DNA of 63,965 nt, counting the filler, from Theionarchaea archaeon (GTDB lineage Archaea; Methanobacteriota_B; Thermococci; Methanofastidiosales; SZ-28-30), in the NCBI GenBank assembly GCA_018992565.1. It is 3 parts of 3 records of this genome, joined end to end, with 100 filler letters (N's around TTAATTAATTAA, not from the genome) between each part and the next. Parts side by side here need not be neighbours in the genome. Positions count along the whole stretch, not along the records: positions 21,530 to 42,954 come from JACVGW010000048.1; 2 more parts are not named here. One strand, 5' to 3'. Of this stretch, positions 39,001-42,000 are shown piece after piece. Position numbers: made by a program. Numbering within the stretch: position 1 is the first letter of the stretch; each line of letters opens with the position of its first letter.

Positions 39001-42000
39001 NNNNNNNNNNNNNNNNNNNNNNNGGGACTACCTGGGTCTGCCGCTCGTAGTGGATGGCTTTGTGGGCACGGGACGGAGTGCTTTTACTGGCGCTGGAGTC
39101 TGGCTGATGGGTCATTTGAGACGCAGCCTCAACAGGTAACTGCAGAGAAACCACCTCGACGATTCGCGACCATGCGAATTCTCTTTCAGGATGAGTAGCT
39201 GATTCAGGAGAATTTATATGTATTACGTCAGTCCTTTGGAAAAATAAGGCACAATTTGAATTGATTCTTGAAAATAATTTTATTTACGTGAATAAAACTT
39301 CGGTTGAAGGATATTATAACATTGAGGCTCTAGAACCTGGAACTGGCATCAGAAGTGGGATGGGAAAATGAAAGCTCTTTCAAGCCACTGCGGATTTTGC
39401 GGCACATATATGTAGAATACTCTATTCTGGTGTGTGTACCACATGTGAGTGGCAACTTCTGGCTTTCGGATCCTGTATGTTCCCTGTTTTCTAGACCGCT
39501 GGATTCTCTACCACCCCCTTCCTGCCTTCTCTACCTCTACCATAAACCCTTTAAAAGGCAGAGCAAAATGGGAGCGTGATGTAATGAATGAACTGCCCGA
39601 CACCCCATCTACAACAGACAAGATTTTAGATAGTATTGCCCACATCTTACCGGAAGTCCAGCTACCGAAACGACCTGTCCCTATGAAGGAACGTCTCCTG
39701 TGGACAGGTGGAGTGCTAACGCTCTTCTTCATTCTGGGTGAAATTACCATCTACGGAGTTTCTCAGGAAGCCCAGGACTATTTTGGCTTTTTCAAGGCTG
39801 TTCTTGCCTCTGAAAGTGGTACTCTTATTACCCTGGGTATTGGTCCCATAGTTGCTGGAGGCATCTTCATGCAATTGTTTCAGGGAGCTGAGATCTTTCA
39901 TTTTGACCTGACTTCTCACCAGGGAAAAGCCAGATATCAGACCGCCCAGAAAATGCTGGCCCTCTTCTTGTGTCTTTTTGAAGCTGCTGTATACATATTT
40001 GCAGGTGCTTTCGGTGAATATGGATTTGGAAGAGAAGTCTTCCTGACTCTGCAGATAGGATTCGGTGCAGTACTCGTGCTCTTCATGGATGAAGTGGTCA
40101 CCAAGTGGGGATTTGGTTCTGGCGTATCTCTGTTTATTGTTGGAGGAGTGGCAAAAGACATATTCTGGAAGACTTTCAGTTTTCTCCCCTCATCTGAACA
40201 GGGAGGTCAGTTGATCGGAGCAGTCCCTGGGTTCATTCAATCAATTGTCAGCGGGGCTCCTGTACTCATAAGGACTGATTTGCCGGACGTGGTGGAGGTG
40301 GCAGCCACACTTCTCATCTTCTTGATTGTCGTCTATTCTGAAACCCTTCGGATCACCATTCCGCTGTCAATGGGACGATTCAAAGGGACCAAGGGAGGGT
40401 ATCCCGTCAGATTCATGTATGCATCAGTCATCCCTGTGATTTTTACCATGTCTGTATTTGGTACTTTCCAGCTGTTTGCAAGATCAATTGAGAACAGATT
40501 TCATCTTGGAATACTGGGACAATTTTCAGCGACAGGTCAAGCAGTGGGTGGGATCATGTACTATATTTCACCTCCCAGAGGTATTGACCAGGTGATGCGA
40601 GACCCCGAACGGGCTCTCATCTATCTCGTGATCGTGCTGGTGTTGTGCGCTTTCTTTGCTCGAATGTGGACGGGTTATGTGGGAATGGATTCAAAGTCAG
40701 TAGCCCAGAGAATTCAAGAAAGTGGAATGCAGGTAGCCGGGTTCCAGAGGGACATACGAGTCATTGAGATGATGCTTGACAAATACATACCGCAGGTCAC
40801 GCTTATGGGAGGAATTGCCGTTGGATTGCTGGCTATTCTGGCTGACTTCACTCATGCGCTAGGAACAGGAACGGGCATTCTGCTTGCTGTTATGATTACG
40901 TTCAGAATGTATACTGATCTCGTGAGAGCTCCCGATCTTCCAGCGTCAATGAGAAAGCTCTTGTCGTAGTCACCAGGAAGGAACGTTGAGGTAGCGTAAG
41001 AACATGGTTCAGGAGATTAGACTCCATGGACTCGTATCTTCATCAGGTGTAGTGTTCCCAGCCCAGTAATGGCATCTTCTCTCCATCAAGAAAGACGCCT
41101 TTTCCTGAAGTGACTTCTCCAATTTCTGTTCCTATCTCAGGATTAATATCAGAATCAGTGAATACCAGTTCATACTCCTCTCCACTCTTCAGAGCCCAGA
41201 GCACTGGATCTTCGCCCAGCATCTCGGCTTTCTCTTTCACTTCAGCATGGATGGGTATCAAGTCGGAGTAGATGGACAATGACACGGCTGAAGCTTCTGC
41301 GAGGTGATATACCTCAGAAGATAACCCGTCAGAAATGTCAATACAGGCATGTGCCTTCAGGGCCAACCCCTCCTTGATGCGGGGGTAAGGAGAGAAAATC
41401 TTCTCTTTCATGGCAGGAGTCGCACTGTCCATATTCTTGAGGCCCGCATACACCCGCCCCACGTCGCCCGTCACTCCCACCTTGTCTCCAGGTTTCGCCC
41501 CACTTCGTAACATGACAGTCCTGGAAATGCCGAGTGCAACCCCGGAGACAGATAGTTCTCCTTCATTCAGGTCTCCTCCTGCGTACAAACAGTGAAACTG
41601 ATCACAGGCACGGGTTATTCCTTTGATCAGGTCCAGGACAGGATATGGCTCAGGAGCAGTAATAGAACACAGAAAGTACTGGGGAGTAGCTCCCATTGCA
41701 GCCAGATCTGACAGGTTCATTACCACGGCCTTCCACCCTATGTCGGAAGGGGTCATTCCACGAGGGACATCGGTCTTTGCTACCAGCGTATCAATAGTCA
41801 GAGAGAAGAGAGAATCATCATGAGAGAACACAAATGCATCTTCACTATCAATGTGTAGCAGCTCTGTAATAGTATGAATCAATTCTCTTTCTTTCATGGA
41901 ATGGTCTGAGAAGAGGCACACTTAAGGGTTTCATATGAACCACAAATAAAAAAGGAGGAGCAGTCTCTTCTCAGGTAGTGAGAGAAGAAGCTCAATCTCT

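Follow-up and report, generated by a model that had tools for sequence, protein, structure and literature searches.

A second, faster-evolving SecY with a remodelled cytosolic face in one family of Theionarchaea-type archaea

Results

The window, i.e. the whole stretch of 63,965 nucleotides that was analysed from a Theionarchaea archaeon, contains a secY paralog ('SecY2') at 39584-40969 on the plus strand. The host lineage comprises an uncultured sediment archaeon and its relatives. The gene is intact and encodes 461 amino acids in a translation free of stops, with matches to the Pfam families SecY (8.4e-59) and Plug_translocon (1.1e-08). PF00344 was matched over positions 1-306 of 306 (199.8 bits, cut-off 32.2), which places the protein in the SecY family, and the plug segment (TM2a before TM2b) was detected by PF10559 Plug_translocon at residues 47-79 (35.2 bits, cut-off 22.1). 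Residues 17-450 align end-to-end with a solved archaeal SecY, that of P. furiosus (3MP7; phmmer, E 1.6e-114). In the alignment of 27 paralogs more than 120 columns are invariant, and the start codon M1 is common to at least 90% of the sequences.

In archaea, SecY is normally single-copy and slowly evolving. The genome-wide survey's note had reported a second copy besides the canonical secY of the ribosomal-protein operon, and exactly two genes were indeed found: the paralog on scaffold C130 and the canonical gene at C153:613-1980 on the minus strand, where the gene order is S5-L30-L15-SecY-YidC-like. The identity of 57% given for the two proteins was reproduced by BLASTP (57.3% over 440 residues, in agreement with 252/440). 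At the DNA level, exact-word comparison revealed one 41-base stretch (40085-40125, plus strand), coding for the DEVVTKWGFGSG motif, that is identical to the canonical secY on C153. The paralog had further been described as standing alone on C130. It does lie outside the operon, but C130 is a scaffold in which a gap of 100 N (38924-39023) precedes the gene by 560 bases. The actual gap measures about 278 bases, as contigs from runs X11 and X18 cross it with 278 letters between 38923 and 39024.

Upstream of the gene, the promoter-like block ACCATAAACCCTTTAAAAG (BRE/TATA-like; 39539-39557, plus strand) is located 27-45 bases before the ATG. Of its 19 positions, 17 are invariant across all five paralog loci compared, which encode proteins of only about 64% identity; the DNA farther upstream shows no conservation across these loci. 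The block is the sole match in the whole source genome at up to two mismatches, and we infer that it acts as a promoter. A regulon sharing the block was considered and rejected: a second copy at this threshold was not found in the source genome, and the six matches at three mismatches resemble generic promoters. Just upstream of the ATG, the sequence GTGAT (39576-39580, plus strand), likewise invariant in 5/5 loci, is a possible Shine-Dalgarno-like element.

Downstream, two genes are encoded on the minus strand. The first (41043-41921, 292 amino acids) is related to AIR synthase (Pfam AIRS, 1.1e-22), and a homologue with 71% identity lies downstream of the secY paralog at the metagenome locus L044. 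The second (41992-42918, 308 amino acids) encodes a class I Tyr/Trp-type tRNA synthetase (TyrRS; Pfam tRNA-synt_1b, 5.6e-25), which is the only match in this genome and is 80% identical to its counterpart in the related genome G033. The paralog lies outside the ribosomal-protein operon in 5/5 loci (the source genome, G033 and the metagenome loci L039, L040 and L044), whereas the canonical SecY lies inside it in 4/4. The three metagenome loci come from a scan with the paralog alignment that picked general SecY motifs; among the 80 loci listed they were the only paralogs, the rest being canonical SecYs of many archaea. Neighbours shared between the five paralog loci are the AIRS-like gene (two loci), a protein of 339-396 amino acids without Pfam match (three) and a membrane protein of 754 amino acids (three). 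Across these five neighbourhoods, no partner or substrate gene was consistently linked to the paralog. Two candidates for linked secretion genes were rejected for lack of recurrence at the other loci: papain-like and Rce1-like proteases near the paralog of G033, and a 2162-aa RHS/DUF2341 protein together with a PQQ-type propeller upstream at L044.

Several lines of evidence bear on the assignment of the paralog to this genome, for which the low contamination stated before was confirmed (1.63%, at a completeness of 88.39%). The tetranucleotide profile of C130 correlates with that of the genome at 0.981, compared with a mean of 0.980 for contigs longer than 15 kb. The contigs that bridge the N gap stem from two independent studies and tie the paralog to the rest of C130. 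In four public runs, contigs that share a 30-base word with the paralog break at the 41-base stretch and run on into exactly the canonical sequence of C153. Depths of the two are similar (10.2 vs 12.8 in X11; 21.7 vs 22.4 in X19), and in run X5 the shared word reached a depth of 500 vs 224 for the paralog contig. As claimed before, G033 carries two copies, 64% and 58% identical to the paralog described here, while G032 and G031 have one SecY each. The lack of the paralog in G032 had been listed as counter-evidence, but G032 also lacks the TyrRS that adjoins the paralog in the source genome, and the missing paralog is therefore probably an assembly hole. Both copies are explicit in the source genome, in G033 and, by name, in Theionarchaea archaeon DG-70-1; four more pairs were inferred from neighbouring accession numbers. 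All genomes concerned are MAGs, 84-91% complete, and none is closed.

To place the paralog in the SecY tree, the careful analysis that had been left unfinished was completed. The proposed separate clade was recovered with 27 rows and a support of 100/100, and its sister relationship to the canonical SecY of the same family with 100/99. A faster evolution was likewise borne out, with a root-to-tip distance of 1.07 vs 0.38 for the canonical copies (about 2.8-fold). In matched MAG pairs, the divergence of the paralogs was 1.5-3.6 times that of the canonical copies; the canonical proteins of G032 and G033 are 96.0% and 84.6% identical to that of the source genome, while the paralogs of the source genome and G033 share 64.2%, close to the values reported before. 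In the database, 26 further clusters at 59-88% identity are nearer to the paralog than the canonical group (55-59%), similar to the number given earlier. In a survey that covered two phylum-level samples, a divergent second SecY was confined to this lineage, with 2/120 genomes of the own phylum and 0/301 of the Thermoplasmatota. Other apparent cases were discarded: the double matches in genus g12 come from single genes whose alignment was split, in G010 and G209 the gene is broken or split, and the two copies of G391 are 91% identical with matching flanks, most simply explained by a mixed bin.

Subsequently, the residues of the channel interior were inspected. The pore ring of M. jannaschii SecY, which we take to be formed by I75, V79, I170, I174, I260 and L406, corresponds to I86, V90, V181, I185, I286 and L434 of the paralog; these sites, like the loop boundaries used below, were mapped by hand from the 3MP7-search alignment, from general background and from a structure model of low confidence. 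In 27/27 paralogs all six positions are hydrophobic (I, V or L), four being invariant and two alternating between V and I only. The structure model, calculated from the alignment of the 27 paralogs, had a mean pLDDT of 57.7 and a pTM of 0.51, too low for a fold search, and its secondary-structure line alone was used; helices and the hairpin of loop 6/7 fall at the expected places. Judged from the alignments, the channel essentials are kept: the plug, the six pore-ring positions and a full-length alignment. Compared with canonical archaeal SecY/Sec61 alpha (3MP7; 1RHZ/1RH5 of M. jannaschii), the paralog has the same family, length, plug and pore-ring positions, while it lies outside the L30-L15-secY operon. 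A replacement of Asn by Val in TM7 was rejected as a mark of the paralog; Val is also present in 24/25 canonical copies of the family and in 19/66 other archaea.

The cytosolic face of SecY is the docking site of the ribosome, the SRP receptor and, in bacteria, SecA. On this face, three regions of the paralog are altered. In loop 6/7 (residues 257-278; 40352-40417, plus strand), Y263, conserved to 95-100% elsewhere, is lost and variable among the paralogs, and a basic residue is replaced by G272 (40397-40399, plus strand): all 27 paralogs have G at this position, where each of the 91 other archaeal SecYs has R or K. In loop 8/9 (residues 364-405; 40673-40798, plus strand), 'IPGFRRD' is changed to 'VAGFQRD', with Q388 (40745-40747, plus strand) in place of a universally conserved Arg. 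Of the 27 paralogs, 23 have Q and 4 have K at position 388, where all 91 others (25 canonical and 66 other archaeal sequences) have R. The C-terminal cytosolic tail (residues 443-461; 40910-40966, plus strand) is rewritten with a deletion of two residues, from 'YEDLMREQMSEMFPALRxFLG' in canonical copies to 'Y.DL.RD--PELP...RK.L.' in the paralogs; E444, E449, P454 and G461 are lost.

Among the sites conserved in other archaeal SecYs, 20/42 are changed in loops 6/7, 8/9 and the C-terminal tail, compared with 11/118 elsewhere (odds ratio 8.8, Fisher p 4.8e-7). As far as the alignments tell, the paralog differs from the canonical channel mainly on its cytosolic face. Within the paralogs, the identity of these regions is 0.69 vs 0.67 in the rest of the protein, which argues that the new surface is constrained. 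Its basic character is partly kept, since R389 is invariant, positions 265 and 267 at the tip of loop 6/7 are basic and rich in Arg, and position 388 is K in four of the paralogs; ribosome binding may thus be tuned rather than lost. By the 3MP7-search alignment and the correspondence given in a passage of PMC2171681, position 388 equals residue 360 of M. jannaschii and R406 of yeast. According to the same passage, non-conservative changes of yeast R406 lower the affinity for the ribosome, and R406E abolished co-sedimentation. For the mammalian complex, a passage of PMC4081569 describes this 'universally conserved' Arg as stacking on rRNA. The Arg at the tip of loop 8/9 is R405 in mammals.

The strain variants listed for the paralog are all synonymous (7/7). 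The gene evolves under purifying selection and possesses a conserved promoter-like element of its own. No RNA run was listed among the public runs that contain it.

With respect to possible partners, SecE and Sec61beta had been described as single-copy genes, and one of each was found. FtsY, SRP54, a YidC-like gene, the SecDF pair and uL23 are likewise present once. No match to SecA (PF07517, SecA_DEAD) was obtained in this genome (88% complete) at E up to 0.001. Modelling of the paralog with SecE gave 0.67 vs 0.00 for the best control, a pass that may reflect only likeness to, or memory of, the solved SecYE structures; the mark of 0.67 was reached by 116/157 solved complexes and by 2/215 mismatched pairs. 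The model runs agreed in at least 97% of contacts with a partner pLDDT of at least 74, and the modelled SecE interface is formed by TM1, TM5, TM6 and TM10 (residues 45-53, 186-201, 246-260 and 435-443).

Discussion

The second SecY would date back to the base of a single family of Theionarchaea-type archaea (placed in the order Methanofastidiosales by the genome collection) and would since then have been inherited vertically beside the canonical secY. We consider it very improbable that the gene instead belongs to another organism and was co-assembled or binned into this MAG. The assembly consists of 154 contigs and is 88% complete, and the gene is situated within the last 3.9-kb piece of its scaffold, behind the N gap; these features would suit an artefact. 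However, this piece also carries the single TyrRS gene of the genome, independent contigs bridge the gap, G033 and DG-70-1 carry both copies, and depths are similar across runs spanning 10 to 224. Moreover, a gene that never occurs in the ribosomal-protein operon, in which every canonical locus is found, cannot be the sole secY of another organism, and the artefact reading is close to refuted. The same can be said, with slightly more assurance, of a decaying or non-functional duplicate. The faster evolution fits decay, as do Pfam SecY scores of 200.5 and 209.0 bits, the lowest among full-length matches (at least 231.9 bits for all others), but in 27 clusters the protein has its full length and shares more than 120 invariant columns, its pore ring is preserved, all listed strain variants are synonymous and the promoter-like block is conserved. 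A rival that concerns the origin alone, and not the function, is that the copy was not duplicated within the genome but transferred from a related lineage of the same family. The careful tree of 40 rows places P0042, a 492-aa SecY that carries the canonical signature, as sister of the paralog clade at moderate support (83/80), and a similar SecY, also of 492 amino acids, is found within an L30-L15-SecY operon at locus L041. Yet a grouping of P0042 with the canonical clade is not rejected by the AU test (log-likelihood difference 1.93, p 0.172), its placement receives only 71/23 in a 72-row tree, and the same topology could result from long-branch attraction to the stem of the paralogs (0.55-0.64). 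We therefore regard a P0042-like donor as rather unlikely.

Concerning function, the reading that we lean towards, with some reservation, is a functional accessory second SecY that is vertically kept, shares SecE and Sec61beta with the canonical copy and docks its cytosolic partner differently. The paralog would assemble with the only SecE and Sec61beta of the cell into a second SecYE-beta channel. As the replacements of Arg by Gln/Lys in loop 8/9 and of a basic residue by Gly in loop 6/7 and the new sequence of the tail are conserved among the paralogs, a cytosolic partner would be docked differently; most likely, the ribosome would be bound more weakly in the canonical mode, and the channel would thus differ from the housekeeping one in its substrate set or its targeting mode. 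A less probable, though quite conceivable, alternative is an ordinary ribosome-coupled, SRP-fed channel that is kept for dosage, condition-specific expression or a subset of co-translational substrates, in the manner of yeast Ssh1 or vertebrate Sec61 alpha-2, with loop changes that would merely tune docking. The partly basic docking loops fit such an isoform, as does the promoter-like element, which would allow separate regulation, and an extra motor, receptor or SecE was not found in the genome. Against it, a residue that is Arg in 91/91 other archaeal SecYs is never Arg in the 27 paralogs, and the changes are concentrated 8.8-fold on a docking face that is itself conserved, a pattern that suggests a new constraint more than drift around the former one. 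Doubtful in our view is the most far-reaching reading, a dedicated ribosome-independent Sec channel whose rebuilt, conserved face would receive not the ribosome but some archaeal motor or targeting factor. A passage of a 2018 review describes the machinery that drives archaeal post-translational Sec export as unidentified (PMC6098224).

The accessory translocon proposed in the genome-wide survey's note therefore stands as far as a genuine, full-length and faster-evolving second SecY with a clade of its own is concerned, located outside the operon and with a remodelled cytosolic face and a kept pore. In the sense of bacterial SecY2 it is not supported: SecA was not found in this genome, nor a dedicated partner or a linked dedicated substrate gene at the five paralog loci. 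What is new relative to that note is that, in the alignments, pore ring and plug are kept while the changes are concentrated on the cytosolic side; the kept pore and the rebuilt ribosome-docking surface suggest a second export route in archaea. The paralog clade can be viewed as a natural experiment in which the pore stays constant, while the residue by which SecY/Sec61 is anchored to the ribosome in all domains has been exchanged and a new surface has become fixed. To our knowledge, archaea lack SecA. Should the paralog dock a different partner in place of the ribosome, this would be relevant to how SecA-less archaea export proteins after translation, and a ribosome-independent channel would offer the first molecular handle on archaeal post-translational Sec export. 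The paralog clade would also illustrate how two specialised machines can emerge from a universal one by duplication of a single subunit.

Bacteria, plastids and eukaryotes offer known examples of a second SecY channel. In line with the earlier statement that an archaeal SecY paralog is undescribed, no report of one was found in open-access literature text. The SecA2-SecY2 pair, an accessory system of Gram-positive cocci, likewise includes a second, divergent SecY that lies away from the ribosomal-protein operon and beside a housekeeping copy. In contrast to that system, the genome described here is without any match to SecA (PF07517), and the five paralog loci are without a conserved operon of accessory proteins and an exported substrate; the paralog is also of the archaeal Sec61 type, with an independent origin inside one archaeal family. 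Yeast Ssh1 (a Sec61 paralog; PDB 2ww9) is likewise a channel-subunit paralog encoded outside an operon, beside an essential copy. Ssh1 and Sec61 use one gamma (SecE-type) subunit in common, as the two SecYs here would use one SecE. The beta subunit of Ssh1, in contrast, is its own, and Ssh1 acts co-translationally, on ribosomes. Only one Sec61beta is present in the archaeon, and it is the ribosome-docking residues that are changed in its paralog. Chloroplast SCY2/SECA2 and vertebrate Sec61 alpha isoform 2 are further cases of a retained second SecY/Sec61 alpha copy; both have a different origin, and plastid SCY2 comes with a matching SecA2, whereas the vertebrate isoform is near-identical in sequence.

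A genome with two SecY genes

Two SecY genes were found when the entire source assembly (G000) was searched, in agreement with the genome-wide survey's note. The second copy, hereafter the paralog, is an open frame of 461 codons at 39584-40969 (+) on contig C130, while the canonical gene (C153:613-1980, -) stands in the order S5, L30, L15, SecY and a YidC-like gene of the EMC3/TMCO1 family. Both proteins are 57.3% identical over 440 residues, close to the 57% given in that note. The paralog covers the entire Pfam SecY profile (199.8 bits), matches the Sec61 plug domain and aligns over residues 17-450 with the solved Pyrococcus furiosus SecY 3MP7 (E 1.6e-114) as well as with M. 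jannaschii SecY; by membership it is a SecY/Sec61 alpha protein. Its start is the ATG at 39584, which is common to the whole paralog alignment, and a longer GTG frame from 39449 found no support there.

The window is a chain of contigs (1-21429, C128; 21530-42954, C130), and C130 is itself a scaffold with three 100-N gaps, one of which (38924-39023) lies 560 bases upstream of the paralog. Its composition is ordinary for the genome (GC 0.460; tetranucleotide correlation 0.981, where contigs >15 kb average 0.980). Next to the paralog lie a gene related to AIR synthase and one for a Tyr/Trp-type tRNA synthetase, the sole synthetase of its kind in the assembly. Public contigs of four sequencing runs from four studies were compared over 35000-42954. 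Contigs of two independent runs, X11 (3572 bases) and X18 (3792 bases), extend from about 36500-36700 over the gap, cover the first 530 bases of the paralog and carry 278 letters where the scaffold has 100 N, so that the true gap size is about 278 bases and the link of the paralog to C130 is independent of the original scaffolding.

Contigs of each of the four runs end at 40085-40114, and these loose ends correspond to exactly the 30 bases preceding the same word in canonical secY on C153. They thus read canonical sequence, and the canonical gene of the same organism was present in each run, at a depth similar to that of the paralog. The two genes share 41 identical bases at 40085-40125, over the DEVVTKWGFGSG motif, though their proteins are only 57% identical, which explains why public k-mer assemblies break inside both secY genes. 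This identity could be due to chance, given the same motif and the same codon use, or be a trace of gene conversion. Contig depths, which are coarse and serve as supporting evidence only, were 12.8 for the canonical gene and 10.2 for the paralog in X11, 22.4 and 21.7 in X19, and 500 for the shared word and 224 for the paralog contig in run X5. The observation of a second SecY in this genome is real and robust, on the basis of MAGs.

The paralog keeps the pore and changes the ribosome-docking face

To compare both copies, 27 paralogs were aligned with 25 canonical copies of the family and 66 other archaeal SecYs from the search of a large protein collection, the fragments P0077 and P0080 being excluded. 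The paralog is full length in all 27 clusters, with more than 120 invariant columns. Its six pore-ring positions (I86, V90, V181, I185, I286 and L434) were mapped by hand, via the alignment to solved SecYs, onto the M. jannaschii pore ring, which we take to be I75, V79, I170, I174, I260 and L406 as in the 2004 structure paper. In all three groups these positions are invariant or occupied by I and V only.

Paralog-specific changes were found in three cytosolic segments. In loop 8/9 the canonical 'IPGFRRD' became 'VAGFQRD'; at position 388, 23 of the 27 paralogs have Q and the other 4 have K, against R in 91/91 other SecYs. G369D, L377I, I384V and P385A go with this exchange. In loop 6/7, position 272 is G in every paralog and R or K in all 91 others, and Y263 is lost. 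Two residues are deleted in the C-terminal tail, where conserved E, P and G positions are gone. Conserved archaeal SecY sites are changed at 20 of 42 positions in these segments and at 11 of 118 elsewhere (odds ratio 8.8, Fisher p 4.8e-7, for sites that are not independent and segment borders that we set from the alignment and the secondary structure of a low-confidence model). The segments are the best-conserved part of ordinary SecYs (identity among canonical family copies 0.94 vs 0.81 for the rest), but the least alike between paralog and canonical copies (0.50 vs 0.58), and among the paralogs they are conserved like the rest (0.69 vs 0.67). This pattern argues for new constraint and not for decay. 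Among the strain differences listed from public contigs, all seven inside the paralog are synonymous third-position changes; four further differences stand outside that list. Val in place of the TM7 Asn of the 'SNIP' motif (query position 282) was rejected as a paralog mark: it occurs in 24/25 canonical copies, 24/27 paralogs and 19/66 other archaeal SecYs, and is thus a lineage trait.

The alignment, together with the residue correspondence in PMC2171681, makes position 388 the equivalent of M. jannaschii residue 360 and yeast Sec61 R406. According to that paper, the dissociation constant for ribosome binding rises from about 5.5 nM to 37-54 nM in R406D and R406W, purified R406E complexes lose ribosome co-sedimentation, and loop 6 mutants impair translocation while binding is little affected (PMC2171681). 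In the mammalian ribosome-Sec61 structure, the ribosome is contacted mainly through loop 8/9 and the gamma subunit, and Arg405 of that loop, described as 'universally conserved', makes a stacking contact with an rRNA base (PMC4081569). R389, adjoining position 388, is invariant and the loop 6/7 tip is still basic, which counts against a complete loss of docking. An accessory channel, as proposed in the survey's note, is a reasonable interpretation that the docking-face changes make sharper; it rests throughout on MAGs, and function, partner and substrates are what we infer.

Sec partners and comparison with known extra channels

One SecE and one Sec61beta gene were found in G000 (88% complete), as had been stated. 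SecE (61 aa) is encoded between ftsZ-like and Spt5/NusG-like genes. Two SRP-type GTPases, of FtsY and SRP54 size, were also detected, along with a single YidC-like gene, a single SecDF pair and a single uL23; no SecA was found in this 88% complete genome. When the paralog was modelled in complex with SecE, the score was 0.67, while the best of three controls scored 0.00; 116/157 solved complexes and 2/215 mismatched pairs reached that mark. Runs agreed in at least 97% of contacts with a partner pLDDT of at least 74, and SecE was placed along TM1, TM5, TM6 and TM10. Since SecYE complexes have already been solved, the model shows likeness and is not proof of binding.

The paralog lacks two marks of the housekeeping orthologue, the operon position and the loop 8/9 Arg. 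Its likeness to bacterial SecY2 and yeast Ssh1 is confined to being an extra channel subunit: unlike SecY2 it comes without SecA2 and an accessory operon, and unlike for Ssh1 its genome has no second beta subunit. No report of an archaeal SecY paralog was found in the open-access literature (as distinct from subscription papers, e.g. the original Theionarchaea description), including the available portions of PMC6098224, PMC7987157, PMC5898192, PMC8675477 and bioRxiv 10.1101/202358.

Phylogeny and origin

In a careful 72-sequence tree (model LG+C20 PMSF; support as ultrafast bootstrap / SH-aLRT) the paralogs formed their own clade (100/100), joined with the canonical SecYs of the family (100/99) against other Methanofastidiosales-type and more distant archaeal SecYs. 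Both groupings, and the faster evolution of the paralog, had been claimed before and held: measured from the common node, tips lie on average 1.07 (paralogs) and 0.38 (canonical copies) substitutions per site away, with crown depths of 0.50 and 0.17. In matched MAG pairs paralog divergence is 1.5 to 3.6 times canonical divergence, and the order of distances agrees for both genes, as expected under joint vertical descent.

In a 40-row careful tree the single SecY of G031, from the other genus of the family, branched outside the paralog and canonical group with moderate support (80/81); the second copy therefore probably arose after the split from that genus. P0042, a sequence with the canonical signature, was placed beside the paralogs in this tree (83/80), and its placement with the canonical clade was not rejected by the AU test (p 0.172). 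The paralog may have arisen by duplication within the genome or have been acquired from a close relative.

Distribution of the second SecY

Among 133 species-representative genomes of the same class, a protein query found a second secY only in G000 and its relative G033, and the Pfam SecY profile returned the same two among 120 genomes of at least 80% completeness. Double matches were rejected in G010 (a broken gene at a contig end) and in the Thermococcus-like genus g12, where one gene aligned in split pieces. These pieces meet or overlap around query residues 146-165, which suggests that this region aligns poorly or holds an insertion.

The closest relative, G032, had been described as lacking the paralog. 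A single SecY copy was indeed found, but real absence is doubtful, since the TyrRS adjoining the paralog in G000, where it is single-copy, has no match anywhere in G032 either. The lack of this essential gene from a MAG of 91% completeness indicates an assembly hole at the paralog locus. The canonical SecY of G032 is 100% identical to cluster P0035, one accession of which lies about 1200 from that of P0002, a paralog cluster 88% identical to the G000 paralog; this proximity suggests that another MAG of the same species carries the paralog. In a large protein collection, 26 further paralog clusters (59-88% identity) ranked ahead of 25 canonical clusters (55-59%). Theionarchaea archaeon DG-70-1 has both copies by name, the paralog being annotated as hypothetical protein, and four more paralog/canonical pairs with accession numbers about 600-2100 apart would each come from one MAG.

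No comparable second SecY was found in a sample of 301 Thermoplasmatota genomes. One genome with two matches had a split gene. The two SecYs of G391 (C1:139208-140467 and C23:102746-104005; loci L205 and L207) share 91% identity as proteins and 76% as DNA and have homologous flanks; the simplest explanation is a bin that mixes two related strains or species. In-frame stop codons were seen in SecY matches of Thermoplasmatota G218 (C11:10593-11828, two TAG) and Methanofastidiosales-type G011 (C87:1874-3190, one TGA), and could reflect recoding, sequencing error or a broken gene.

Gene neighbourhood and upstream elements

The canonical copy lies in an L30-L15-SecY operon in 4/4 loci examined and the paralog outside such operons in 5/5. 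Two upstream elements are conserved across these five paralog loci: a block of 19 bases (39539-39557 in G000, ACCATAAACCCTTTAAAAG) and, directly before the ATG, GTGAT. There is no conservation farther upstream of the block. The block is unique in the G000 genome and may be an archaeal BRE/TATA-like element, at a distance fitting a short or absent leader.

Across the loci compared, no gene related to secretion accompanies the paralog. An acidic gene of 339-396 aa without Pfam match is convergent to it in three metagenomic loci (L039:3693-4883, L040:11378-12412 and L044:11561-12580; 61-64% identical); it has no tblastn match in G000 and is absent from the G033 contig. An AIRS-like gene follows the paralog in G000 and L044. 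The gene for a membrane protein of 754 aa stands before the paralog in G033 and L040 and at a greater distance upstream in L044; in G000 its homologue is encoded on a different contig. Directly upstream of the paralog and on the same strand, L044 (1627-9540) encodes a 2162-aa RHS-repeat and DUF2341 protein and a 438-aa PQQ-type beta-propeller, an arrangement not seen in the other paralog loci. On C130, the upstream stretch 31332-38786 holds three genes, which encode a hybrid histidine kinase (1325 aa) carrying a receiver domain and numerous PAS domains, a KaiC-like ATPase of 650 aa, and a protein of 433 aa that weakly matches LigD primase-polymerase.
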